Shown in pieces: positions 10,325 through 32,488 of a stretch of 64,000 nucleotides of DNA. The stretch spans positions 1,334,853 through 1,398,852 of the forward strand of contig OZ241350.1 of the NCBI GenBank assembly GCA_965200095.1, given 5' to 3'. This DNA comes from Alphaproteobacteria bacterium (GTDB lineage Bacteria; Pseudomonadota; Alphaproteobacteria; UBA7887). A program made the position numbers and the translations under genes. A model generated the notes under the pieces. It was not told the origin of the DNA. It saw nothing but the letters and a program-made list of their open reading frames with translations, and did not search any database. Each line of letters opens with the position of its first letter. The first letter of the stretch is position 1.

Positions 10325-11140
10325 GCGAAGGAGCGTGTGAAGAAATTGGATGCCTCTCACAAATAACGGTGGAGACGCCGACAATACTTCGTCATTCCCG
10401 CGAAAGAGCGTGTGAAGAAATCGAACAGCGTTACAAGTACTCGTCATTCCCGCGAAAGCGGGAATCTCTTTGCGGCGTTTCCGTAAGAAAAACCGGGCCG
10501 ACATTGCGGGCGGGCGCCTCCGGATTCCCGCTTTCGCGGGAATGACGAAGTATTATTCGATGAGTATTGTCTTTTACGGCGCCGATACTTCGGAGAACCG
10601 GCCGTCACAATGAGAGCCGCCCGATTTCTTCACACGCTCGAAAGCGGGAATCTATCGCGGCGTTTCCGCAAGGAAAACCGGGTCGGTATAGCGGACGGTC
10701 ACCCCCGGATTCCCGCTTTCGAGTGTGTGAAGAAATCGAACAGCGTTACAGGTACTTGTCATTCCCGCGAAAGCGGGAATCTCTTTGCGGCGTTTCCGTA
10801 AGAAAAACCGGGCCGACATTGCGGACGACCGCCTCCGGATTCCCGCTTTCGCGGGAATGACGAAGTATTATTCGAATGACGAAGTATTATTCGGTGGATA
10901 TTGTCTTTTACGGCGCCGATACCTCGGCGATCCGGCCGTCACGATGACAGCCGCCCGGTTTCTTCACACGCTCGAAAGCGGGAATCCGGGGGCGGTCGTC
11001 CACAATATCGGCGCGGTTATTCTTACGGAAACGCCGTAATGACGAAGTATTATTCGATGGGTATTGTCTTTTACAATGCCGATACCTCGGCGATCCGTCC
11101 GTCACGATGACAGCCGCCCGGTTTCTTCACACGCTCGAAG
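10325..11140. repeat. Array of REP-like palindromic units (core ATTCCCGCGAAAGCGGGAAT flanked by GACGAAGTA / TACTTCGTC) with spacer modules
   Basis: Many copies of 'tcgtcattcccgcgaaagcgggaatc' and its inverse 'ggattcccgctttcgcgggaatgacga' occur at irregular spacing. The ORFs predicted inside are translations of the repeats. Confidence 0.75.
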
Positions 11141-11403
11141 GCGGGCCTTGCCGCCCTGCGCGCCGACATCGCCGCCCTTGACGCGAAGATCGCCGCACTC
11201 AAGGCCGACCTCTACCGCGCCTTGCGGATACAGGGCGCCGGTCTCGTCACCGTCATGGTGGGGATCGAGTTCTTCGGATAGCCCGGCGTCGCAGCCCGCG
11301 CCGGGCTCGACGCCCCGGGGGCCGCGCGCCGTCGGGAGGACGGGGGCGCGGCGGCGAATTTCACGAACCCGCCGCTGACCGGGACAATCGCGTTCGCCAC
11401 GGC

Positions 11404-12803
11404 TGTCGAGAACAATCGGAATTGACCGGTTTAGGTACCAAACGAGTTGACCGCTTCGGTTTGGCCCGTGTTCCGGCTTCCGAGCCGGCGGCCGCCGGCT
11501 CGGAAGCCGGAACACGGGCTGGCCGCGTCGAAGCGGGTTACGCGGCTTCCTCCCTCTCGCCTTCGATGAGCCTTCCTTCCCTGTCGTAATCCGCCAGCCG
11601 GCGCGGGCCGGCGAAGACCGCCAGACCGCCATCGGGATACTCGTGCACCCGGACCCGGCTCTTCACATAGTGGCGCCGATGCATGTCCGGCGGGATCGAA
11701 AGCGTCAGACGCTTGTAGCGCACCGTGTTGTCGTTCCCCACAACCCGGTCCTCCTGCACGCACAAGATGTCCGCAAGCGCCCCCGCGCCCGCCCACGGCA
11801 CGAACGCCGAACCCTCGCCTTCCGCCGGAACCGCAAACCGCGCGTTGTGCGAAGGCACAAACGCATCCCGCAGAAAGCGGTTCGCCGACACCATATCCTC
11901 GACCCCGGCAAGGCGCAGTTCCTGAGGCAAACGCTGTTGCAGCGTCCCGAACATGCGCTCCGACCGGCCCCGCGCTTGCGGCGTGTAGGCCGCGATCAAA
12001 TCGATGCCCAGATGCGCAAGCGCCCGACCGACCTGCGTCGGCTTCTCCTTGTCCACCTTCCCCCCGGCCTCCGGCGTGCGCCAGTAGTGGCTCCCGCGAT
12101 CCGCATAGAGCGAGCAGAACAGGCCATGCGCCTCAATCACCTCGCGCAAAGCCGAAAAACTGCTCATCGTCCCCTCCTCGGACACGAAAAACGCCGAGTA
12201 AATCTCGCTCGTCGCATCGTCCATCGTCACAATCAGGTCCCACCAACGCCCCGAAACCCACTCATGCCGCGACCCATCCCGGTGCAGCATCATCCCGGGC
12301 AACGCACGACGCGCGCGCTTGCGACGATGCGCCCCGCGACGCGGGGCCGCGCGAACCCGGCCATGCGCCTGCAGCGTCAGACGAACCCAGTTGTAACTCC
12401 GACGCACGCCGTGCTCCGACACCAGCTTCTCGTGGAAGTGCTTCGACGTGAAATCCCAGTAGCGCGTGTCGAACAAATCAAGCACACGCGCAACCTCGTC
12501 AACCGCAGCGCGACGCGACGACACACGACCGAGACGGCGGTCGTAAAGCCCCTCCGCTCCCTCCGCCTCATACCGGTCACGCCAGCGCCGGAACGTCCGC
12601 TCGCTGATGCCCAGAACCTCCGCAGCCTCCAGCTGGCTCAACGCGCCGCCGCGCGTTCGTCCGTAAACCTCCTCAAACCTCATAAGGCGTAGTCCCCGAT
12701 CCTGCTCCGTCCGACCCATCCCCCAGCCCTCCACAGAACAAAAGGGGCATGATCCGGACAGAACGCCTGGTACCTACACCGGACAAATCACATGTTAGCG
12801 ACA
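11404..12803 (-). mobile_element. IS481-family-like insertion sequence, copy 1 (1400 bp), flanked by a 6-bp direct repeat CACGGC
   Basis: Imperfect terminal IRs cTGTCGagAACA ... TGTTagCGACA start with TGT. Target duplications CACGGC at 11398-11403 and 12804-12809. Carries a 398-aa HTH + rve (DDE) transposase. Confidence 0.7.
11538..12734 (-). CDS. DDE transposase (HTH + integrase-core, IS481-like)
   Basis: N-terminal HTH 'LSQLEAAEVLGISERTFRRWRDRYEAEGAEGL'. 398 aa, identical to the copy at 13522..14718. Confidence 0.7.
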   Translation of the reverse strand: MEGWGMGRTEQDRGLRLMRFEEVYGRTRGGALSQLEAAEVLGISERTFRRWRDRYEAEGAEGLYDRRLGRVSSRRAAVDEVARVLDLFDTRYWDFTSKHFHEKLVSEHGVRRSYNWVRLTLQAHGRVRAAPRRGAHRRKRARRALPGMMLHRDGSRHEWVSGRWWDLIVTMDDATSEIYSAFFVSEEGTMSSFSALREVIEAHGLFCSLYADRGSHYWRTPEAGGKVDKEKPTQVGRALAHLGIDLIAAYTPQARGRSERMFGTLQQRLPQELRLAGVEDMVSANRFLRDAFVPSHNARFAVPAEGEGSAFVPWAGAGALADILCVQEDRVVGNDNTVRYKRLTLSIPPDMHRRHYVKSRVRVHEYPDGGLAVFAGPRRLADYDREGRLIEGEREEAA

Positions 12804-12844
12804 CACGGCTTGCAGGCGGCCCCGCGCCGGGTTATCGTCGCCGC

Positions 12845-13303
12845 ATGACTGTCGCCGACATCCCGGCCGGCTTCGATACGCTCGCCGCAACCCGCGATCT
12901 CGAAGCGGCCGGTATCGAACGCCGCCACGCCGAAGCCGTCGTCGCGGTCGTGCGCGCCAGCCGCGCCGGCCTGGCCACGAAGGCCGATCTCGACAACCTC
13001 GAAGCGCGGATGGGCGGACGTTTCGCAGAACTCCAGGCGCAGATGGACGGGCGCTTCGCAGAACTCCAGGCGCAGATGGACGGGCGCCTCGCGGAATTCG
13101 AAGCGCGGGTGAACGGGCGTTTCGCGGAATCCGATGAGCGGGTGAACGGGCGCTTCGCGGAATCCGATGAGCGGGTGAACGGGCGCTTCGCGGAACTCGA
13201 AGCGCGGATGCTCAAGGTCGCCATCTCCATCGTGCTGGCGCAGACCGCGTTGACCGTCGGCCTGACCTTCGGGTTGCTCAAGCTGTTCGGAGGCGCGCCA
13301 TGA
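12845..13303 (+). CDS. DUF1640-like tail-anchored coiled-coil protein, paralog C (152 aa, six 11-residue repeats)
   Basis: '...EARMGGRFAEL QAQMDGRFAEL QAQMDGRLAEF EARVNGRFAES DERVNGRFAES DERVNGRFAEL' then a TM. Lies between the two direct IS copies. Confidence 0.6.
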   Translation: MTVADIPAGFDTLAATRDLEAAGIERRHAEAVVAVVRASRAGLATKADLDNLEARMGGRFAELQAQMDGRFAELQAQMDGRLAEFEARVNGRFAESDERVNGRFAESDERVNGRFAELEARMLKVAISIVLAQTALTVGLTFGLLKLFGGAP

Positions 13304-13387
13304 ACACGGCGACCTTCGACACTCATGCGGCCCTCAGGGCGCTCACCCGCGCCGGCTGAAACCGCGGGTTCGCCTCCGGCAAGCCTC

Positions 13388-14787
13388 TGTCGAGAACAAT
13401 CGGAATTGACCGGTTTAGGTACCAAACGAGTTGACCGCTTCGGTTTGGCCCGTGTTCCGGCTTCCGAGCCGGCGGCCGCCGGCTCGGAAGCCGGAACACG
13501 GGCTGGCCGCGTCGAAGCGGGTTACGCGGCTTCCTCCCTCTCGCCTTCGATGAGCCTTCCTTCCCTGTCGTAATCCGCCAGCCGGCGCGGGCCGGCGAAG
13601 ACCGCCAGACCGCCATCGGGATACTCGTGCACCCGGACCCGGCTCTTCACATAGTGGCGCCGATGCATGTCCGGCGGGATCGAAAGCGTCAGACGCTTGT
13701 AGCGCACCGTGTTGTCGTTCCCCACAACCCGGTCCTCCTGCACGCACAAGATGTCCGCAAGCGCCCCCGCGCCCGCCCACGGCACGAACGCCGAACCCTC
13801 GCCTTCCGCCGGAACCGCAAACCGCGCGTTGTGCGAAGGCACAAACGCATCCCGCAGAAAGCGGTTCGCCGACACCATATCCTCGACCCCGGCAAGGCGC
13901 AGTTCCTGAGGCAAACGCTGTTGCAGCGTCCCGAACATGCGCTCCGACCGGCCCCGCGCTTGCGGCGTGTAGGCCGCGATCAAATCGATGCCCAGATGCG
14001 CAAGCGCCCGACCGACCTGCGTCGGCTTCTCCTTGTCCACCTTCCCCCCGGCCTCCGGCGTGCGCCAGTAGTGGCTCCCGCGATCCGCATAGAGCGAGCA
14101 GAACAGGCCATGCGCCTCAATCACCTCGCGCAAAGCCGAAAAACTGCTCATCGTCCCCTCCTCGGACACGAAAAACGCCGAGTAAATCTCGCTCGTCGCA
14201 TCGTCCATCGTCACAATCAGGTCCCACCAACGCCCCGAAACCCACTCATGCCGCGACCCATCCCGGTGCAGCATCATCCCGGGCAACGCACGACGCGCGC
14301 GCTTGCGACGATGCGCCCCGCGACGCGGGGCCGCGCGAACCCGGCCATGCGCCTGCAGCGTCAGACGAACCCAGTTGTAACTCCGACCCACGCCGTGCTC
14401 CGACACCAGCTTCTCGTGGAAGTGCTTCGACGTGAAATCCCAGTAGCGCGTGTCGAACAAATCAAGCACACGCGCAACCTCGTCAACCGCAGCGCGACGC
14501 GACGACACACGACCGAGACGGCGGTCGTAAAGCCCCTCCGCTCCCTCCGCCTCATACCGGTCACGCCAGCGCCGGAACGTCCGCTCGCTGATGCCCAGAA
14601 CCTCCGCAGCCTCCAGCTGGCTCAACGCGCCGCCGCGCGTTCGTCCGTAAACCTCCTCAAACCTCATAAGGCGTAGTCCCCGATCCTGCTCCGTCCGACC
14701 CATCCCCCAGCCCTCCACAGAACAAAAGGGGCATGATCCGGACAGAACGCCTGGTACCTACACCGGACAAATCACATGTTAGCGACA
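13388..14787 (-). mobile_element. IS481-family-like insertion sequence, copy 2 (100% identical to copy 1), flanked by a-GCCTC / c-GCCTC
   Basis: The 1984-bp offset from copy 1 is conserved throughout, with identical ends. 5/6-bp direct repeat; the surrounding target shows a GCCTCCGGCAA tandem duplication. Confidence 0.7.
13522..14718 (-). CDS. DDE transposase (IS481-like), copy 2
   Basis: Differs at one residue (G vs R) from the ORF at 11538..12734. Confidence 0.7.
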   Translation of the reverse strand: MEGWGMGRTEQDRGLRLMRFEEVYGRTRGGALSQLEAAEVLGISERTFRRWRDRYEAEGAEGLYDRRLGRVSSRRAAVDEVARVLDLFDTRYWDFTSKHFHEKLVSEHGVGRSYNWVRLTLQAHGRVRAAPRRGAHRRKRARRALPGMMLHRDGSRHEWVSGRWWDLIVTMDDATSEIYSAFFVSEEGTMSSFSALREVIEAHGLFCSLYADRGSHYWRTPEAGGKVDKEKPTQVGRALAHLGIDLIAAYTPQARGRSERMFGTLQQRLPQELRLAGVEDMVSANRFLRDAFVPSHNARFAVPAEGEGSAFVPWAGAGALADILCVQEDRVVGNDNTVRYKRLTLSIPPDMHRRHYVKSRVRVHEYPDGGLAVFAGPRRLADYDREGRLIEGEREEAA

Positions 14788-14804
14788 CGCCTCCGGCAAG
14801 CCTC

Positions 14805-15423: not shown

Positions 15424-17661
15424 ATGCTTGCGCCGCATCTCCGGTTTTCCCCCGTCGGCGACGGCGCGGCGCTGCTGGTTTCCGAAAGCTTCAACCGGCT
15501 CCTCGAGGGGCGGCTCTGGCCCGCCCTGTTGCCGCTGCTCGACGGGACGCGCTCGCGGGCGGAGATCGCTGCGGCGCTCGCCGAGAGCCATCCGGCGCTC
15601 GAGACGCAAACGGCGCTGGTCGCGCTGGCGACGCAAGGCGTGGTCGTTTCCGCCGAATTCTCGATGGACCGCGCCGCGGCCGCGTTCTGGTCGCGCCTCG
15701 GCGCATCGCCGCGTCTCGCCGAAGAACGGCTGGGCGCGGCGCGGGTTTCGGTCTCCGGCCCCGAACCGCACGCCGAAAATTTCGCCCGGCGGCTGGAAGC
15801 GGCGGGGCTGACGGCAACCCGCGCGACTCCGACCCTGGCGGCCGTCGTCGCGCCGGATTTTCTCGACGACTCCCTGGCGGAGGACAACCGGCGGCGGGTC
15901 GCCGGCGGGCCGCCCTGGCTCGCGATCGCGCCGGACGGCGCGCCGCCGCTGTTCGGCCCCGTTTTTCGTCCCGACGGAGACGGGCCGTGCCTGGCGTGCC
16001 TGACGCAGCGGCTTTCCGCCAACCGCGAAGCCGAGGAGTTCCTGCGCGCCGCCGGCGACGGCGGAGACCCGGTCCGCCCCCGCGCGCCCGGCGGTTTCGT
16101 CGACGCCGCGCTGGGCCTTGCGGCGACCGCGGTCGCGGTCTGGACCGTGCTGGGGGAACGATCGCCGCTGCACCGGTGCGCGGTCTCGCTGGACGCGGCC
16201 GGGCTGGAGAGCCGCCGCCACCCGGTGACGCGGCGCCCGCAATGCCCCGTTTGCGGCGACCCGGCTCTCAGGCGCCCCGGCCGCGCGTCGGCGCCGGTGC
16301 GGCTACGGCCGAGCCCCGCTCCGGCGCGCGGCGACGGCGGACCGCGCGCCGTGCCGCCGGAGGAAACCTTGCGCCGGTGGGGCCATCTCGCCGACCCGGT
16401 AAGCGGCGTCGCGGCGGCGTTCGGACCGCTCGCGCCGGAGGGCGACCCGTGGCTGCACGTCTTCCGATCGTCCGGCAATTCGGCGCTGCGCACGCACGAT
16501 CTGCGCCAGCGGCTCCACAGTCTGCGCGCCTGGTGCCTCGGCAAGGGCGCGACGGCGGCGCAGGCGCAGGCGAGCGCCCTGTGCGAGGCGGTGGAGCGCC
16601 GCTGCGGCGCGTTTCACGGCGACGAGGTCCGCCGCCGCGCGCGCTTCGTCGATTTCCCCGCCGGCGACGCGCTGGCGCCGAACGACGCGCAGCTGTTCAG
16701 CGACCGGCAGCTGGCGGACGCGGCCGCGCTCAACGCGTCCGAACCGCATTTCAACCGCATCCCGCCGCGTTTCGACCCGAAGGCCGAAATGGACTGGTCG
16801 CCGGTGTGGTCGCTGACGGCCGAACGCCGCCGCTGGCTGCCGACGCAGCTGCTCTGGTTCGCCGCGCCGGCGGAGGACGGAGTTGTCCACTGCACGGCGG
16901 ACTCCAACGGATGCGCGGCCGGCAACACACTGGAAGAAGCGGTGCTGCAAGGGTTTCTGGAGCTCGTGGAGCGCGACGCCTTCGCGTGCTGGTGGTATAA
17001 TTGCGTCGCGCTGCCGGGGGCGGACCCGGGCGGGTTCGGCGACCCGTGGCTCAGCCGGGCGCCGGCGCATTATCGCGCGCGCGGTCGCGACATGTGGCTG
17101 CTGGACGCAACGCACGATCTCGGCGTCCCGGTCTTCGTCGCGGTCTCGCGACGCACCGACAAGGAGGCGGAGGACATCATCTACGCGGCGGGGGCGCATC
17201 TCGACCCGCGCGTGGCGGCGCGGCGCGCGGTGTGCGAGCTGAACCAGTATCTCGCCGTAACCGGCGGCGCGAAGGCCGACGGCTCCGGCTATCTGAGCGA
17301 CGACCCGGAGTCGCTGCGACGGTGGCGGACGATGCGGCTGGCGGACCGGCCGTGGCTCGCCCCCGCGCCGGGAGCGCCGCGCCACGCCGCCGCCGCCGGG
17401 CCGGTCGCGGACGCGACGGACACGCTGCGCGCCCTCGAACATTGCCGCGAGGCGGTCGAGTCCCGCGGAATGGAGGTTCTCGTGCTCGACCAGACGCGGC
17501 CCGACATCGGGCTGCCGGTGGCGCGAACGATCGTTCCGGGGTTGCGCCATTTCTGGCCGCGCTTCGCGCCGGGGCGCCTCTACGACGTCCCGACAGCGAT
17601 GGGCTGGCGAGACGCTCCGGCGCGCGAAGAGGAGCTGAACCCGGTTCCGGTGTCGATCTGA
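15424..17661 (+). CDS. Fused E1-like/YcaO azoline-forming cyclodehydratase (PatD/TruD-like TOMM heterocyclase)
   Basis: N-terminus 'MLAPHLRFSPVG...LLPLLDGTRSRAEIAAAL' aligns with the PatD start (MQPTALQIKPHFH...ILPLLNGQYTLEQIVEKL). YcaO ATP/Mg motifs 'SALCEAVERR' and 'GFLELVERDAFACWWYN'. The C-terminus 'LNPVPVSI' has a PxPxP-type motif. Start chosen at ATG 15424; the TTG at 15265 lies inside the terminator. Confidence 0.8.
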   Translation: MLAPHLRFSPVGDGAALLVSESFNRLLEGRLWPALLPLLDGTRSRAEIAAALAESHPALETQTALVALATQGVVVSAEFSMDRAAAAFWSRLGASPRLAEERLGAARVSVSGPEPHAENFARRLEAAGLTATRATPTLAAVVAPDFLDDSLAEDNRRRVAGGPPWLAIAPDGAPPLFGPVFRPDGDGPCLACLTQRLSANREAEEFLRAAGDGGDPVRPRAPGGFVDAALGLAATAVAVWTVLGERSPLHRCAVSLDAAGLESRRHPVTRRPQCPVCGDPALRRPGRASAPVRLRPSPAPARGDGGPRAVPPEETLRRWGHLADPVSGVAAAFGPLAPEGDPWLHVFRSSGNSALRTHDLRQRLHSLRAWCLGKGATAAQAQASALCEAVERRCGAFHGDEVRRRARFVDFPAGDALAPNDAQLFSDRQLADAAALNASEPHFNRIPPRFDPKAEMDWSPVWSLTAERRRWLPTQLLWFAAPAEDGVVHCTADSNGCAAGNTLEEAVLQGFLELVERDAFACWWYNCVALPGADPGGFGDPWLSRAPAHYRARGRDMWLLDATHDLGVPVFVAVSRRTDKEAEDIIYAAGAHLDPRVAARRAVCELNQYLAVTGGAKADGSGYLSDDPESLRRWRTMRLADRPWLAPAPGAPRHAAAAGPVADATDTLRALEHCREAVESRGMEVLVLDQTRPDIGLPVARTIVPGLRHFWPRFAPGRLYDVPTAMGWRDAPAREEELNPVPVSI

Positions 17662-17761
17662 CGGCGGAACCGGCTCATCCCGGGGCGCGCGACGGGCAAG
17701 CCGGGTTGACGCTCCGGCGGCGAGCCGGTATCGTGGCGGCGGCTTTGCCGGGGAGAGCGAG

Positions 17762-18391
17762 ATGCCGAAGATCAACCCGTTCGTCGGTCTGTTCGTGGCC
17801 ATCGCGGCGCTGAACGCGAGCATGTTCGTCTGGCTGCGCGCCGACATCGCCGAAGTCCGCGAGGAAATCGCCGCCGTCCGCGGGGATGTCGCCGGCAATG
17901 GCGAGCGTCTGGCGCGCATCGAGACCGTGCAGGCCGAACATGGCGAGCGTCTGGCGCGCATCGAGACCGTGCAGACCGAGCATGGCGAGCGCCTGACGCG
18001 CATCGAGACCGTGCAGGCCGAGCATGGCGAGCGCCTGACGCGCCTCGAGGCCGGGCAGGCGGAACTGCGCGACCGCATGGCCGAGGTCGAAATCGGGCAG
18101 GCGGAGATGCGCGCCGATATCGCCGAGCTCGGCGAGCGCGCGATTCGCGTCGAAACCGGGCAGGCGGAATTGCGCGACCGCATGACCGGGGTCGAAGCCG
18201 GACTTGCGGGGTTGCGCGCCGATATCGCCGAAGTCGGCGAGCGTGTGGTTCGCGTCGAAGCCGGGCAAACCATGACCGGCGAGCGCATGGCGCGCATCGA
18301 AGGCACGGTCGCCGGCGCGCTCGGGCGCCCGTTTCCGGGCGCGGATCGCGTCGCACGGGCGCCCGAGGCGGGCGCAAACGCGGCGAACTGA
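17762..18391 (+). CDS. N-terminally membrane-anchored tandem-repeat coiled-coil protein (4 x 14-aa 'GERLARIETVQAEH' + 21-aa repeats)
   Basis: TM 'PFVGLFVAIAALNASMFVWL' followed by near-perfect tandem repeats. Upstream are TTGACG..17..TATCGT and an SD GGGGAGAG. Confidence 0.55.
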   Translation: MPKINPFVGLFVAIAALNASMFVWLRADIAEVREEIAAVRGDVAGNGERLARIETVQAEHGERLARIETVQTEHGERLTRIETVQAEHGERLTRLEAGQAELRDRMAEVEIGQAEMRADIAELGERAIRVETGQAELRDRMTGVEAGLAGLRADIAEVGERVVRVEAGQTMTGERMARIEGTVAGALGRPFPGADRVARAPEAGANAAN

Positions 18392-18494
18392 CCCTTCGCG
18401 ATACGGGACGGAAACCCGGACGAACCGACCGCCGGCGCCCGCGGCCAGATCCATGGCCGGCAGCCTGCCTGCGGCCATGGCGGCCCGCTCCGCG

Positions 18495-19793
18495 TTTCGT
18501 ATGCGAGACCTTTGCATAACCCGTTTCGCCTGCGGCAGGATCGCGTTCCCGATGCTTTACGACGTTTTCGAACCTGCCGTCGGAGCATGACAGTGAGTGA
18601 CGGAATTACGGGAATCCGCCCTCTGCATCGATAATTCCCGCTTTCGAGCATATGAAGAGACCGGATGTTTCTCACTATGGCGGTCGGAGCGCCGAAGGGT
18701 TCGGCGCGGCAAAAGACAACAATTCTCTAATAATACTCGTCATTCCCGCGAAAGAGTGTGTGAAGAAATCGAAAGGCCGCACTACTCTTCGTCATTCCCG
18801 CGAAAGCGGGAATCTGTCGCGGCGTTTCCGTAATAAAAACGGGCCGATATAGCGGACGGCCGCCTCCGGATTCCCGCTTTCGAGCATGTGAAGAAACCGG
18901 GCGTCTCCGATCGTGACAGCCGGATCGCCGAGGCACCGGCATTGTAAAAGACAATACCCATCGAATAATACTTCGTCATTCCCGAGAAAGAGCGTGTGAA
19001 GAAATTGAGCGCCTCTCACTATGGCGGCTGGACAACTCAAGAACCGCCATAGTGAAAGGCGGTAACCCCCAGATAATACCTCGTCATTCCCGCGAAAGCG
19101 GGAATCCGGAGGCGGACGTCCGCTATATCGGCCCGCTTTATTATGGAAACGTCGCAACGGATTCCCGCTTTCGCGGGAATGACGAGTATTTGTAAGGCCT
19201 TTCAATTTCCTCACACGCTCTTTCGCGGGAATGACGAAGTACCATTCGGTGGTTATCGTCTTTTACAAATGCCGTTACTTCGGCGATCCGGCTGTCACGA
19301 TTCGGAAACGCCCGACTTCTTCACACGCGTGAAAGCGGGAATCTGTCGCGGCGTTTCCGTAATAAAAACGGGCCGGTATAGTGGACGGTCGCCTCCGGAT
19401 TCTCGCTTTCGAGCGTGCGAAGAAATCGAGAGCCGCTACTATTCTTCGTCATTCCCGCGAAAGCGGGAATCTGCTTGCGGCGTTTCCGTAAGAAAAACCG
19501 CGCCGATATTGCGGACGGCCGCCTCCGGATTCCCGCTTTCGCGGGAATGACGAGTATTTGTAAAGCCGTCCGATTTCTTCACATGCTCTCGCGGGAATGA
19601 CGAGTGTTTGTAAGGCTGTTCAATTTCCTCGCACGCTCTTTCGCGGAACGGATATGTCCGGACAACGACGAGCCGGATCGAATCGAGGCGCCCGGTCATC
19701 CCGTCGACGCCTCGCGACATCGCCGGAAGTCGAGCCGAACAGGCAACCGCTCGCGACCGGCCCCCGAAAAAAATCCGGACCTCGGCAGAGGTC
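18495..19793. mobile_element. MITE-like non-autonomous element (about 1.3 kb): 5' module GAGACCTTTGCATAAC..., internal REP-unit array, 3' module ...GGCAGAGGTC
   Basis: Same 5' (~125 nt) and 3' (~180 nt) modules as the element at 26897..27617. The terminal inverted repeats here are degenerate. Confidence 0.55.
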
Positions 19794-19885
19794 GCATATG
19801 CCTCGAACGAGGACGCGGCGTAGCGCGCGGACGGCCCGGGGGCTACGCTGCAATGCGACAGCTTTCCTGGCGGATCGGGGGCGAC

Positions 19886-23159: not shown

Positions 23160-23422
23160 CGGCGCCGGCCATCAAGCGATCCGGTTCACCGAAAACCGGC
23201 GCTCCGACCGTACAAATACTCGTCATTCCCGCGAAAGCGGGAATCCGGAGGCGGTCGTCCGCTATATTGGCCCGTTTTTTTATTACGGAACCCCCGCAAC
23301 GGATTCCCGCTTTCGCGGGAATGACGAAGAGTAGTAGGGCTTTTCAATTTCTTCACACACTCTATTCGCGGAACGAATATGTCCGAACAAACGACAAGCC
23401 GGCTCGAATCGAGGCGCCCCGG
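23160..23422. repeat. Truncated copy of the REP-array/MITE 3' module, abutting the aspS stop
   Basis: REP units plus 'cgcggaacgaatatgtccgaacaaacgacaagccggctcgaatcgaggcgccc', homologous to 19640-19700 and 27450-27520. Confidence 0.6.
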
Positions 23423-25216
23423 TCAGCCCCCTGCCGCCGCCGGCGCGCGGCGGATGCGGAGCTCGCGCAACTGGGCGTCGGAGACCTCGCCGGGCGCGCC
23501 CATGAGAAGGTCCTCGGCGCGCTGGTTCATCGGGAACAGGATGACCTCGCGGATGTTCGGCTCGCCCGCCAGCAGCATGACGATGCGGTCGACTCCCGGC
23601 GCGATCCCGCCATGCGGCGGGGCGCCGTAGCGGAAGGCGCGCAGCATCCCGCCGAAACGCGCCTCCACCTCCCCGGGCGCGTAGCCGGCGATGCCGAAAG
23701 CCTTGACCATGATGTCCGGGCGATGGTTGCGGATCGCGCCCGAGCTCAACTCCACGCCGTTGCACACGATGTCGTATTGCCAGGCGAGGATGTCCAGCGG
23801 GTTGCGGTTCTCCAGCGCCTCCATCCCCCCTTGCGGCATGGAAAAGGGGTTGTGGCTGAAGCCGATTTCGCCGGTGTCCCCGTCGCGCTCGTAGAGCGGG
23901 AAGTCGACGGTCCAGCAAAAGCGGAAGACATCCTTCTCCACGAGGTCGAGCGCCTCGGCGATGCGCACGCGCGCGCGCCCCGCCAGCGCCGCCGCTTCGT
24001 CCGGCTTCATGCACACGAAGAACACGGCGTCGCCGGCGCCGGCTCCCGCCGCGTCGCGGATCGCCGCCTGCGCTTCCGGGGGAAGGAATTTGGCGATGGG
24101 GCCCTTCCCGGCGCCGTCGGCGGGGTCGAAAACGATATAGCCGAGGCCCGGCGCTCCCTCTTCGCGCGCCCAGTCGTTGAGCTTGTCGAAGAACGAGCGC
24201 GGTTGCGCCGCGGCGCCGGGAGCGGGAATCGCGCGCACCGTCGCCCCCTTGTCGACGGCGTTGCGGAACGCCTTGAACGTCACGCCGTCCATGAGGAAGG
24301 CGCGGGTCGCGTCGGCGATGACGAGCGGGTTGCGCAGATCGGGCTTGTCGGTCCCGTATTTCAGCATCGCGTCGGCCCAGGCGATGCGCGGGAAGGGCGG
24401 GGGCGTGACCGGGCGGCCGCCGCCGAATTCCTCGAACACGCCGTGCAGCACGGGCTCGATGGCGGCGAACACATCCTCCTGCGTCGCGAACGCCATCTCC
24501 ACATCGAGCTGGTAGAACTCGCCGGGGCTGCGATCGGCGCGCGCATCCTCGTCGCGGAAGCACGGCGCAATCTGGAAATAGCGGTCGAAACCGGAGACCA
24601 TGACCAGCTGCTTGAACTGCTGCGGCGCCTGCGGCAGGGCATAAAACCGCCCCGGATGCAGACGGCTCGGCACGAGGAAGTCCCGCGCGCCTTCCGGGCT
24701 CGACGACGTGAGAATCGGCGTCTGGAATTCGGTGAAGCCGCTTTCGATCATGCGGCGGCGGATGTCGGCGACGACCGCCGAGCGCAGCATGAGGTTGCGT
24801 TGCATCGGCGCGCGCCGGAGGTCGAGAAAGCGGTAGCGCAGGCGGGTCTCCTCGCCATAGGGTTCGTCGCCGGCGACCTGCATCGGCAGGACCTCGGCGG
24901 ACGACTGGACCGCGAAATCGGCGATCCGCAATTCGACCTCCCCGGTGGCGAGGCGCGGGTTGACGGTGTCGGCGCTGCGCGCGACCACCACGCCGGTGAC
25001 GGTAACGACGCTTTCGGGGCGCGCCGCTTCCACGGCGGCGAAATGCGCCCCGTCGCGCTCGACGACGCATTGGGTGACGCCGAACTGGTCGCGCAGGTCG
25101 ACGAACAACAGGTTGCCGTGGTCGCGCTTGCGGTGGACCCAGCCCGACAGGCGGGCCCGGGCGCCGACATGTTCGCGGCGCAACCGGCCGCAGTCGTGCG
25201 TTCGGTAAGCGTGCAT
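23423..25216 (-). CDS. aspS: Aspartate--tRNA ligase
   Basis: '[13 protein letters not shown]', '[14 protein letters not shown]', the class II motifs 'FYQLDVEM' and '[16 protein letters not shown]'. 597 aa. Confidence 0.92.
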
Positions 25217-26695: not shown

Positions 26696-26899
26696 ATGAA
26701 CATACTGAACACAATCAAACTGGCCTTTTGGAGTCCGGAGTTGCCGGAGGATCCGGAAAAGGCAAAGCGGGCGTCCGTCCGCCGTATCGTGAGCCGGTTG
26801 ACGCGCGGAAACGCTCGCCTGCGGCGGGGCCAGTACCTGACGAGGGAGGACCTGGAGCGGCAACGCGAGAGAGTTATTTCCTGCGATTTCACGGATTGA
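26696..26899 (+). CDS. Small hypothetical protein (67 aa) in a local low-GC patch, ending at the MITE boundary
   Basis: ATG-started ORF 'MNILNTIKLAFWSPELPEDPEKAKRASVRRIVSRL...'. GC is markedly lower than the surroundings. The stop overlaps the element TIR. Confidence 0.3.
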   Translation: MNILNTIKLAFWSPELPEDPEKAKRASVRRIVSRLTRGNARLRRGQYLTREDLERQRERVISCDFTD

Positions 26900-27617
26900 G
26901 ACCTCTGCATAACTCGTTTCGTCTATGGACAGGATCGCGTTCCCGGCGCTTTTGCGACGTTTCCGAACCCGCCGTCCGGGGTATGACAATGCGTGACGGA
27001 ATCGCGAACATCCGCCCCCTGCCCCGGTAATTCTCTCGTAAAGAGCGTGTGAAAAAATTGAAAAGCCCCGCTACTCTTCGTCATTCCCGCGAAAGAGCGT
27101 GTGAAAAAAGCCGAGAGACGCTACTACTCTTCGTCATTCCCGCGAAAGCGGGAATCTGCTTGCGGCGTTTCCGTAAGAAAAACCGCGCCGGTATTGCGGA
27201 CGTCCGCCTCCGGATTCCCGCTTTCGCGGGAATGACGAAGTACTATTCGATGGGTGTTGTCATTTACAATTCCGATACTTCGGCGAACCGGCCGTCACAA
27301 TGAGAGCCGACCAATTTTTCACACGCTCGAAAGCGAGAATCCGGAGGCGCTCGCCCACAATGTCGGCCCGGTTTTTCTTACGGAAACGCCGCAACAGATT
27401 CCCGCTTTCGCGGGAATGACGAGTATTTGTAAATCTGTCCGATTTCTTCACATGCTCTTCGCGGAACGAACATGTCCGCACAATGACAATTCGGCTCGAA
27501 TCGGGGCGCCCGGTCATCCCGTCGACGCCTCGCGACGCCGCCGGAAGTCGGGCCGAACAGGCAACCGCCGAGCCGCGCGACCGGACCCCGAAAAATCCGG
27601 GCCTTATGCAGAGGTCC
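26897..27617. mobile_element. MITE-like non-autonomous element (about 720 bp): TIR TGAGACCTCTGCATAA / TTATGCAGAGGTCC, flanked by a 5-bp direct repeat CGGAT, with internal REP units
   Basis: 13/15-bp perfect inverted termini. Flanks are ...cacGGAT|tgagacc and ggtcc|CGGATcgat. The interior shares the 5' and 3' modules with 18495..19793. Confidence 0.65.
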
Positions 27618-27653
27618 CGGATCGATCCCGCGTCCGGTCCCGATCGCCGCCCG

Positions 27654-28313
27654 TCACCGCGCCGGGGCGAGGCAGTCGCGCAGGAAGCGGGCGCCGATGG
27701 CGAGGCCGTCGGGGGCGATGCCGTGGCCGACGCCGCTGCTGACATGCCATTGCGCGGAGACGCCCGCGGCGCCGAGGGCGGCGACCGCCTCGTGCAGCGC
27801 GGCGATCGGCACCATGTCGTCGGCGTCGCCGTGAATCAGCATCGCCGGCGGACGCGCGACCGCTTCGTCCGCCAGCCGCGCGGCGCCGATCAGGCGGCCC
27901 GAATAACCGAGGACCCCGGCCGGCGCGCGCCGGCGCCGCAGGGCAACGTGAAGCGCCATCATCGTTCCCTGGCTGAAGCCGACCAGGACAAGCCGGTCGT
28001 CGCCCAGACGATCCGCGTCGAGAGCGCCGTCGATAAAGGCGTCGAGCGCCGGCGCGGCGCGTTCGACGCCGGCGCGCAGCGCCGCTTCGGAACGGTCGCG
28101 GACGGAAAACCATTGCCGCCCCATCGGCGCCATGTCGCATCGCTCGGGGGCATGGGGCGACAGGAAGCGACATTCGGGGAGCGCCCCGGCCCAGCTGTCG
28201 GCGAGGCCGATCAGGTCCTCGCCGTCGGCGCCGAGACCGTGCAGGAGGACGACCGCCGCCTGCGCCCGGCCGCCGGAAGCCGGGCCGCGCTCGGGCCCGC
28301 GCAATCGAATCAT
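27654..28313 (-). CDS. Alpha/beta hydrolase (phospholipase/carboxylesterase family)
   Basis: 'VVLLHGLGADGEDL', nucleophile elbow 'GFSQGTMMAL', 'IHGDADDMVP'. Confidence 0.8.
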   Translation of the reverse strand: MIRLRGPERGPASGGRAQAAVVLLHGLGADGEDLIGLADSWAGALPECRFLSPHAPERCDMAPMGRQWFSVRDRSEAALRAGVERAAPALDAFIDGALDADRLGDDRLVLVGFSQGTMMALHVALRRRRAPAGVLGYSGRLIGAARLADEAVARPPAMLIHGDADDMVPIAALHEAVAALGAAGVSAQWHVSSGVGHGIAPDGLAIGARFLRDCLAPAR

Positions 28314-30939: not shown

Positions 30940-32250
30940 CGGATTCGACTGCCGGGGAGATATTGAAGAAATCGGACGGCTCTCATCGTGACGGACGGAT
31001 CGGCGAAGTATCGGCATTGTAAAAGACAATACCCATCGAATAATACTTCGTCGTTCCCGCTTTCGAGCGTGTGAAGAAATCGAGAGACGCTACTATTCTT
31101 CGTCATTCCCGCGAAAGAGCGTGCGAAGAAATCGAATGGCGTTACAAATACTCGTCATTCCCGCGAAAGCGGGAATCCAGCGCGGCGTTTCCGCAAGAAA
31201 AAGGCGGATTAGTCTTTCGGGCGGCCGCTCCGGATTCCCGCTTTCGCGGGAATGACGAAGTACTATTCGGCAGTTATTGTCTTTTACAATGCCGATACCT
31301 CTGCGATCCGTCCGTCACGATGAGAGCCGTCCGATTTTTTCACACGCTCTTTCGCGGGAATCTGCTTGCAGCGTTTCCGTAAGAAAAAACCGGGCCGATA
31401 TAGCGGGCGGCCGTCTCCGGATTCCCGCTTTCGAGCGTGTGAGGAAATCGAGAGGCGCTACTACTCTTCGTCATTCCCGCGAAAGCGGGAATCCGCCTGC
31501 GCCGTTCCCACAAGGAAAACCGCGCCGATATTGCGGACGGCCGCCTCCGGATTCCCGCCTTCGCGGGAATGACGAAGTATTATTCGGCGGGGACTGTCTT
31601 TTTACAATGCCGATACCTCTGCGATCCGTCCGTCACGATGAGAGCCGTCCGATTTTTTCACACGCTCGAAAGCGGGAATCCGTTGCAGCGTTTCCGAAAA
31701 GAAAATGTTCCGATATTGCGGACGATCGCTTCCGGATTCCCGCTTTCGAGCGTGTGAAGAAATCGAACGGCGTTACAAACACTCGTCATTCCCGCGAAAG
31801 CGGGAATCTCTTTGCGGCGTTTCCGTAAGAAAAACCGGGCCGACATTGCGGGCGGCGCCCCCGGATTCCCGCTTTCGCGGGAATGACGAAGTATTATTCG
31901 GTGGTATTGTCTTTACAGTGCCGACACCTCGGCGATCCGTACGTCACGATGAAAGCCGCCCGATTTCCTCACACGCTCGAAAGCGGGAATCCGGAGGCGG
32001 TCGCCCGCAATGTCGGCCCGGTTTTATTACGGAAACGCCGCAACAGATTCCCGCTTTCGCGGGAATGACGAGTATTTGTAAGGCCGTCCGATTTCTTCAC
32101 ACGCTCTTTCGCGGGAATGACGAAGTACTATTCGGCGGTTATTGTCTTTTACAATGCCGTTACTTCGGCGATCCGGCTGTCATGATCGGAGACGCCCGAT
32201 TTCGTCGCACGCTCTTTCGCGGGAATGACGAGGATTGGTGCGGTCTCTCG
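30940..32250. repeat. Largest array of the REP-like palindromic units (>12 units) with no recognisable MITE termini
   Basis: Alternating 'cgtcattcccgcgaaagcgggaatc' / 'ggattcccgctttcgcgggaatgacg' units with ~55-nt and ~80-nt spacer modules. The internal ORFs are artefacts. Confidence 0.75.
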
Positions 32251-32488
32251 ATTTTTTCGCACGCTCGGAAGCGTGGCTCCAGGTTGCGCGGCAAGGCGGT
32301 CGGAACGGGCGGACGCAGCGGCGATGAACGCGCCTCCGGCGGCTATCGGCGCAACTGTCGCGCCGGGCGGACCGGGCGTTCGCCGCAAGACCCGGGAGCG
32401 GCTCGCCTCCATCGTGCGTCGCACGCGGGCGATCGTCCCTGTCCCCGCCCGAATCGGGCAAACGGACGACTACGAACCCGGATCGCTA

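Follow-up and report, generated by a model that had tools for sequence, protein, structure and literature searches.

How does an array of intergenic hairpin repeats reach a new place in a chromosome? The question is raised by a 721-bp repeated element, which we call element A, in a 64,000-nt stretch of an alphaproteobacterial genome (assembly GCA_965200095.1, contig OZ241350.1, positions 1,334,853 to 1,398,852 of the forward strand). We refer to this whole stretch as the window; position 1 is its first letter, and the contigs with which it was compared are labelled L001 to L023. Element A lies between a gene for a 67-aa protein (26696 to 26899, + strand) and a convergent Abhydrolase_2 gene (27654 to 28313, − strand), and its interior is an array of hairpins of the dRS3 or Neisseria Transformation Sequence (NTS) type. 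The arrival of such arrays at new loci is left unexplained in PMC11893778 and in the available text of PMC1797815. We found that element A and a longer copy, element B, are likely to be non-autonomous derivatives of an IS5-family insertion sequence (IS). The array, which resembles the intergenic mosaic elements of Neisseria (NIMEs), would be a passenger that was moved between transposon ends.

Termini and flanks of element A

A self-BLAST of the window mapped the repeated DNA to 26898 to 27616 (element A) and 18505 to 19793 (element B). Element A ends in a perfect 13-nt inverted repeat, with GACCTCTGCATAA at 26900 to 26912 and TTATGCAGAGGTC at 27604 to 27616. When the right module was shuffled, 0 of 300 shuffles reached the score of this inverted-terminus alignment. 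An earlier, sequence-only reading of this DNA had proposed inverted termini, and they were confirmed. The element ends that it gave are essentially right by self-BLAST, and lie 1 nt off the register of the IS family described below, in which each terminus is 15 nt long (Table 1). The same holds for its direct repeat, CGGAT. The repeat is present, at 26892 to 26896 and 27618 to 27622, and the family register shifts the putative target-site duplication by 1 nt, to GGATT on the left and GGATC on the right. A 5-nt direct repeat was found equally near two random boundaries in 2.4 to 3.9% of random trials. The stop codon of the 67-aa gene, TGA, is composed of the last T of GGATT and the first GA of element A.

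An intact IS5-family relative

Contig L023 is a 2.83-Mb ENA contig of a close relative, with flanks 96% identical to the window. It carries an intact IS5-family IS of 1304 bp (L023:15887 to 17190), which has GAGACCTCTGCATAA at 15887 to 15901 and the exact inverse at 17176 to 17190 (15/15 at both ends). The IS encodes a 335-aa open reading frame with the domains DUF772 and DDE_Tnp_1, and this transposase scored 218 bits against the NCBIfam IS5-family model NF033581 (transpos_IS5_4; cut-off, 140). Elements A and B have 15-bp termini that are identical, or nearly so, to those of the IS. They also share its conserved left end, GAGACCTYWGCATAACYCG, and the first 22 nt of their left module, L, are the left end of the L023 IS. 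Their right module, R, aligns to the stretch of the IS that runs from the transposase stop codon to its right terminus (74.8% over 103 nt, E = 1.4e-8 by BLAST). This homologous 3' untranslated end includes CGAAAAA...G.CTTATGC.GAGGTC, and over its last 16 nt, up to GAGGTC, R does not differ from the right end of the IS. Relative to the modules R of A and B, the 3' untranslated region of the L023 IS contains an insertion of about 95 nt (L023:17075 to 17170).

Elements A and B differ from the IS in that they carry an NTS array instead of a transposase gene, and in that L past nt 22 is unrelated to it. A tblastn search with the L023 transposase found no transposase of this family in A, in B or in the whole window, and the only open reading frames inside element A are spurious ones that span repeats. 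As read from these alignments, the elements keep the 15-bp termini, about 22 nt of the IS left end and about 155 nt of the IS 3' end, with the array apparently replacing the transposase gene. Therefore, the L023 IS, with its 15/15 termini and its homology to R, supports the description of element A as a non-autonomous transposable element that the sequence-only reading had offered.

That reading had also proposed a search for an IS with matching terminal inverted repeats. Besides the one in L023, such an IS is present on a Marinomonas algicola plasmid (NZ_CP061942.1:144102 to 145296). Its transposase is 68% identical, and its termini read GAGACCTCAGCATAA. The same plasmid carries a miniature inverted-repeat transposable element (MITE) of 107 bp (NZ_CP061942.1:138832 to 138938) that has the family termini and a perfect 5-bp duplication, TTCAT. 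A second MITE, of 84 bp, lies at L022:1771 to 1854 (JGI Ga0272444_10087955; 51% GC) and has the perfect 5-bp duplication TCCAT. Because the perfect duplications of both MITEs stand directly outside the termini, the family register is [5 bp]GAGACC...GGTCTC[5 bp]. Only 0.12 to 0.32 matches to the terminal motif are expected per locus, yet it stands at both ends of five independent elements. The two small MITEs, which belong to the same IS5 subgroup, come from unrelated, lower-GC organisms, and the terminal motif GAGACCTYTGCATAACTCG is conserved across bacterial classes.

Identity of the hairpin arrays

The cargo of element A had been taken for repetitive extragenic palindromic (REP) units. This part of the sequence-only reading did not stand, and the hairpins are instead NTS/dRS3 hairpins in a NIME-like arrangement (PMC11893778; PMC1797815). 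The window holds 21 occurrences of the unit TCATTCCCGCGAAAGCGGGAAT, where 0 are expected, and 3 of them fall in element A. The unit is the strict dRS3 motif, ATTCCC-N8-GGGAAT. Taken together with its flanks, it corresponds to the 28-nt NTS motif, CGTCATTCCCGCGMAVGCGGGAATCYRG, which is defined in PMC11893778 and has 10 exact matches in the window and 18 with at most one mismatch. A 33-nt stretch that overlaps the NTS unit at 27210 to 27237 is identical to N. gonorrhoeae.

The 21 units form five intergenic arrays, starting near 10.3, 18.6, 23.2, 27.0 and 31.0 kb. The hairpins are separated by modules of 35 to 105 nt that belong to families a (about 58 nt), b (about 90 to 105 nt) and c (about 35 to 40 nt) and occur in both orientations. 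As single-stranded DNA, array A folds to −201 kcal/mol, against −127 kcal/mol for shuffles (z = −14). The interior of array A has a GC content of 52%, and all arrays lie between 52 and 56%, in a window of 70% GC. This composition suggests a repeat family out of compositional equilibrium with this host. When module L is taken together with the arrays the range is 52 to 60% GC, and the R2 part of R and the unique flanks of element B are at 68 to 74% GC.

Most of the relatives' contigs (about 95 to 96% identical in the shared flanking DNA, about 150 to 180 kb in total) contain no dRS3 at all. A diverged NTS array is present in L023, where the right terminus of the intact IS is joined directly to a truncated b' module of the array. 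Because the L023 IS abuts an array, IS copies and arrays are neighbours in this lineage.

Copies B and C and the shared array junction

A second, longer copy with shared end modules and a different interior had been noticed before, and our comparison bears this out. The left modules of A and B are 81% identical over 136 nt and the right modules 83% over 178 nt. The similarity ends 0 to 2 nt from the 15-bp inverted repeat, and the interiors are of unequal length and unlike in module order. The shared modules, earlier estimated at about 125 and 180 nt, are real, and their sizes are about 133 nt on the left and about 155 to 175 nt on the right. Element B is flanked by TATGC at 18500 to 18504 and 19797 to 19801, with the right repeat displaced by 1 nt (A + TATGC). 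A third copy, C, is truncated (array C). Element A is downstream of the 67-aa gene, element B is upstream of a BphC-like dioxygenase gene, and copy C is beside aspS.

A, B and C share one junction between the array and module R: a c' module, TTCGCGGAAC, and then GA(A/T)ATGTCCG. This shared junction is derived, since its GCGGAAC is the NTS half-site minus one G and with T changed to C. The counterpart in the intact IS is GTGCGGGACAAGTGCGTCCGGAC, which begins just past the transposase stop codon. Comparison with this counterpart places the junction inside GCGGGA, a 6-nt microhomology that the NTS right half shares with the IS. The junction between L and the array is at one L position in A and B. 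Because the array-R junctions are identical at three loci, they imply that A, B and C go back to a single array-bearing ancestor that was later copied, the array having moved with the ends. The sequence-only reading had suggested that such an element might explain how the arrays disperse. This fits the array of A, B and C, which moved together with its ends; it does not extend to two other arrays of the window, D and E, which are without IS ends.

Array C stands in place of a DUF6338 gene that adjoins aspS in L020 and L011. Its R1 end fuses with native sequence at a 14/16-nt similarity, GGCGCCC(C)GGTCA, which suggests a microhomology-mediated deletion.

Table 1. Features of elements A, B and C (window coordinates)
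Feature	Position	Strand	Basis or remark
Element A, transposase-less IS5-family derivative, 721 bp, internal NTS array	26898..27618	+	Self-BLAST boundaries, termini, homology to L023 IS
Left terminal inverted repeat of A, GAGACCTCTGCATAA	26898..26912	+	15/15 against both ends of the intact L023 IS
Right terminal inverted repeat of A, TTATGCAGAGGTCCC	27604..27618	-	14/15
Putative target-site duplication of A, left copy, GGATT	26893..26897	.	Register taken from two family MITEs
Putative target-site duplication of A, right copy, GGATC	27619..27623	.	4/5 identical to left copy
Left module L	26898..27030	+	First 22 nt are the IS left end; remaining ~110 nt common to copy B
NTS/dRS3 mosaic array of A	27031..27462	.	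Module order c c a b a' c', quasi-palindromic
NTS hairpin unit	27132..27159	+	28-nt motif, 1 mismatch
NTS hairpin unit	27210..27237	-	28-nt motif, exact
NTS hairpin unit	27394..27421	-	28-nt motif, 1 mismatch
Right module R (R1 + R2)	27463..27618	+	Homologous to IS 3' untranslated end; starts at GCGGGA microhomology with NTS right half
Element B, 1291 bp, same orientation as A	18505..19795	+	Left terminus 14/15, right terminus degenerate, 11/15
Truncated copy C (array C), a' - c' - R1 fragment	23207..23429	+	Same array-R1 junction; without R2, right terminus and L

Insertion sites in relatives and change of the arrays

Element A is present in the same-species contigs L001/L015, L002 and L014 at 96.5 to 100% identity. 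In L006, L007 and L009 to L012 (flanks about 93 to 96% identical), site A is occupied by a conserved gene for a membrane-anchored protein of 211 aa (the 211-aa gene), which overlaps the 67-aa gene's stop codon and has no similarity to element A. Contig L013 has a truncated 211-aa gene and other, low-GC DNA at this site, and in L023 the site holds a type II methyltransferase together with three IS elements. With contents that differ from relative to relative, the slot downstream of the 67-aa gene resembles a hot spot of accessory DNA.

The right flank of element A reads GGATC GATCCCGCGT, and relatives have TGATCCCGCGTT immediately after their 67-aa coding sequence. Because the right flank of A matches the sequence after the 67-aa stop codon there, the two flanks of A are contiguous in these relatives. 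The right flank also aligns, more weakly, to the region downstream of the 211-aa gene. We read site A as a probable insertion at the stop codon together with a separate deletion of about 710 nt that removed the 211-aa gene. The unoccupied sequences are predicted to be CACGGATTGATCCCGCG at site A and CGTTTCGTATGCCTCGAACG at site B, with one copy of the 5-mer in each.

We considered L020 and L021, the closest array-free relatives, as carriers of an empty site B and rejected them. They lack 1460 nt (window 18402 to 19861), including the region upstream of the BphC-like gene, which is conserved in outgroups. Because the missing DNA includes this conserved sequence, L020/L021 represent a deletion allele. 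The deletion, at L020/L021:9977, is bounded by GGGACGG and GCGACAG, which are imperfect direct repeats. For a protein encoded in the flanks, the nearest named homologues come from genera of the Acetobacteraceae, at about 55% identity.

Arrays also differ between strains that share them. Element B is 292 nt shorter in L002, and the indel is bounded by identical direct 26-nt copies of NTS (18789 to 18814 and 19081 to 19106). Therefore, array size changes by recombination between NTS copies. Between strains, identity is only 60 to 90% for the 67-aa gene but about 99% for the adjacent gene SGL. Element-bearing strains share a haplotype that begins near 26845, inside the 67-aa gene. A variable gene beside the array, as the 67-aa gene is here, is a point of likeness to the NIME arrays described in PMC1797815.

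Proposed origin of the elements and alternative explanations

We propose the following course of events. In the ancestor, an NTS unit may have recombined with an IS at the 6-nt microhomology GCGGGA just past the transposase stop codon. Alternatively, an array could have come to lie between two IS copies whose inner parts were deleted afterwards. An intact IS copy would then have moved the transposase-less product in trans, by DDE cut-and-paste or by copy-out. Insertion into 5-bp staggered targets would have brought the array to the loci of A, B and C, and after insertion the arrays would have been altered by recombination between NTS copies. A wider form of this proposal is possible, and we hold it to be doubtful. 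In this form, DDE-transposon ends would be a main vehicle of NTS/NIME-type arrays, the IS5-family transposase would have seeded most arrays here, and later deletions would have erased the IS ends, with array C half-way. The array invasion would then be recent, because most relatives' contigs are without arrays.

Several observations weigh against a passenger array moved between IS5-family ends. The duplication at element A is only 4/5 identical, and element B has a right terminus of 11/15 and a duplication that is 1 nt off. Module L past nt 22 has no significant similarity to the 5' region of the L023 IS, and six-frame protein searches with L and R returned nothing. There is no intact IS of this family in the window, and the L023 IS is without a target duplication and has an IS1595-family element directly on its left. 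MITEs are usually smaller than about 600 bp, and A (721 bp) and B (1291 bp) both exceed this size. Exact k-mer scans, which are insensitive to diverged copies, found no further copies of L or R except for the 84-bp MITE. In the GTDB representative genomes, which do not include the source genome, a 20-mer taken from module R had two matches, both attributable to chance. The single hit of a k-mer scan of JGI metagenomes was the 84-bp MITE in L022, and a plasmid BLAST with the whole element matched nothing beyond the NTS core, which it found in two records of N. gonorrhoeae. The comparison with empty sites that the sequence-only reading had suggested went part of the way: the flanks of A are contiguous in relatives, as described above, and no clean empty site for A or B was found among the relatives' contigs. 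The evidence for a duplication therefore consists of the repeats on either flank and the register of the family. Arrays D (about 10330 to 11140) and E (30964 to 32273) have no IS ends, and both stop in truncated modules. Because two of the five arrays in the window are without IS ends, the IS-end element is one dispersal route, and not necessarily the main or only one.

These arrays fit the definition of NIMEs, and L and R might therefore be low-copy RS modules of a purely NIME-like mosaic, with A and B produced by recombination, gene conversion or imported alleles and no transposition at all. The truncated modules at the ends of arrays D and E agree with this, as does array C, where R1 is accompanied by neither R2 nor L. 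Moreover, the array-bearing allele at sites A and C stands where relatives have a gene, and the haplotype break near 26845, inside the 67-aa gene, is what allelic replacement would give. However, the similarity of A and B stops 0 to 2 nt from a 15-bp inverted repeat, and a genuine IS5-family IS has this very sequence as its termini; R is homologous to the 3' end of that same IS; and the near-perfect 5-bp flanking repeats are of the family length. Recombination accounts for the movement of alleles from strain to strain, but not for the arrival of the block at unrelated loci. We consider a mosaic without transposition improbable.

It is also conceivable that a MITE of about 300 bp, made of L and R, spread first, and that NTS units entered each copy independently at an internal hot spot and expanded there. 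IS copies and arrays do cluster, as the L023 array directly outside the IS terminus indicates; both module order and length change between the interiors of A and B; and the 292-nt indel marks the arrays as dynamic. But the array-R junction is the same derived GCGGAAC after the same c' module in A, B and C, and the point of L at which the array is joined does not differ between A and B. Independent insertions would not have produced identical junctions three times, so we give independent entry a somewhat smaller chance still than the mosaic. The termini and flanking repeats might, finally, be coincidental in GC-rich intergenic DNA, given that a 5-nt flanking repeat alone occurs at 2 to 4% of random boundary pairs. 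A 13- to 15-nt inverted repeat was reached in none of the 300 shuffles, however, and the terminal motif stands at both ends of five independent elements, far above the expectation per locus given above. Coincidence is refuted by these counts, and we assign it next to no weight. Transposition of an array-bearing IS5-family derivative therefore remains our preferred explanation for A and B.

Relation to known systems

MITEs and mobile insertion cassettes (MICs), such as the IS231-derived MIC231, consist of IS termini around non-transposase DNA and are mobilized in trans. Elements A and B share with them the IS-type inverted termini, the flanking repeats of family length, the lack of a transposase and the presence in more than one copy. 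They differ from usual MITEs in their larger size, 0.7 to 1.3 kb. They differ from MICs in their passenger: MICs carry a gene, whereas A and B carry a non-coding array that belongs to another repeat family and whose size still changes after insertion. By size and passenger content, the elements are closer to a cassette-type derivative.

In PMC1797815, NIMEs are 20-bp dRS3 sequences (ATTCCC-N8-GGGAAT) that flank RS modules of 50 to 150 bp and are organized in arrays. The 21 strict dRS3 motifs in five arrays, and the few module families in both orientations, match this description. So do the syntenic arrays of unequal length between strains, the hypervariable adjoining gene and the allele breakpoints at arrays. 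In contrast to the neisserial hosts, the host here is an Acetobacteraceae-like alphaproteobacterium with 70% GC, and three arrays out of five have IS5-family ends joined to them. That 2007 paper states that NIME arrays had not been seen outside Neisseria. In the text available to us, it describes IS elements in NIME arrays only as possible opportunistic insertions and not as array carriers, and it proposes that NIMEs spread by recombination with exogenous DNA or by a site-specific recombinase.

The NTS and Ssn-related motifs are recognized by the GIY-YIG single-strand nuclease SsnA (PMC11893778). That study reports NTS-like repeats in other phyla, including alphaproteobacteria, and proposes NTS-ssnA-NTS as a possible ancestral mobile unit. 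The 28-nt motif is common to both systems, with the exact and near-exact matches counted above. The window differs in that the moving unit is bounded by DDE-transposon ends. A cognate ssnA gene is typically flanked by the motif, and no ssnA-like GIY-YIG gene was found in the window by a motif scan, by tblastn with GIY-YIG queries or by Pfam analysis of the large open reading frames.

The array may also be set beside the REP sequences and bacterial interspersed mosaic elements that, as REPINs, are associated with REP-associated tyrosine transposases (RAYTs). These are hairpin repeats too, and IS1397 is among the IS elements that target REPs. Intergenic hairpins in inverted doublets, and IS elements near hairpin arrays, are found in both cases. 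The sequence class is different here, however, and no Y1/RAYT transposase was present among the open reading frames of the window that were scanned. Compared with IS1397, the topology is inverted, with the array within IS ends here and the IS within the array there.

The components of this locus, IS5-derived MITEs and cassettes, NIME arrays and NTS motifs, are each of a known kind. In the literature searched, we found no description of their combination, a hairpin-repeat array between DDE-transposon ends in a non-neisserial host. The locus shows a full NIME-like system in a high-GC alphaproteobacterium and offers a concrete, testable route of dispersal, in which an array captured between IS5-family termini would have been copied to at least three loci. 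After insertion, the arrays are resized by NTS-NTS recombination and are located at deletions of neighbouring accessory genes. If the reading of DDE-transposon ends as a main vehicle is true, the lineage would offer a natural setting in which to follow how NIME-like arrays originate and remodel the genes beside them. Such elements would be missed in annotation by IS finders, as they have no transposase, and by MITE finders, as they are too long and have a repetitive interior.

Other observations

Other origins and functions of the end modules were examined as well. A six-frame chimeric query of L and R had no match among 5.8 billion proteins, and neither module has similarity to the 211-aa gene that occupies site A in relatives. 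We therefore rejected both as gene remnants. Outside the termini, there is no long-range complementarity between L and R. The termini do not covary across strains; in L002 and L014 the left terminus carries a C-to-T change that is not compensated in the right one. Rfam gave no match at gathering thresholds and only noise below them, and scans for promoters and terminators gave no signal above shuffles.

The window does contain two copies of an ISNCY-family IS, at 11403 to 12804 and 13387 to 14788. They are 99.9% identical, lie 580 bp apart and encode a 393-aa transposase (NF033594, 359 bits). We considered this IS as the trans-acting partner of element A and rejected it, since its termini start with TGTCG and are unrelated. 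The apparent target duplications of the two copies are very unequal, ACGGC for one and the 16-nt GCCTCCGGCAAGCCTC for the other. Short open reading frames of a coiled-coil, DUF1640-like type with internal repeats occur at 12850 to 13300 and 17639 to 18391 of the window and at L020:14626 to 17771. Array D runs into the remnant of a coiled-coil protein gene. In L020, seven coiled-coil/DUF1640-like paralogues stand in tandem, and one of the copies in the window lies between the two ISNCY copies.

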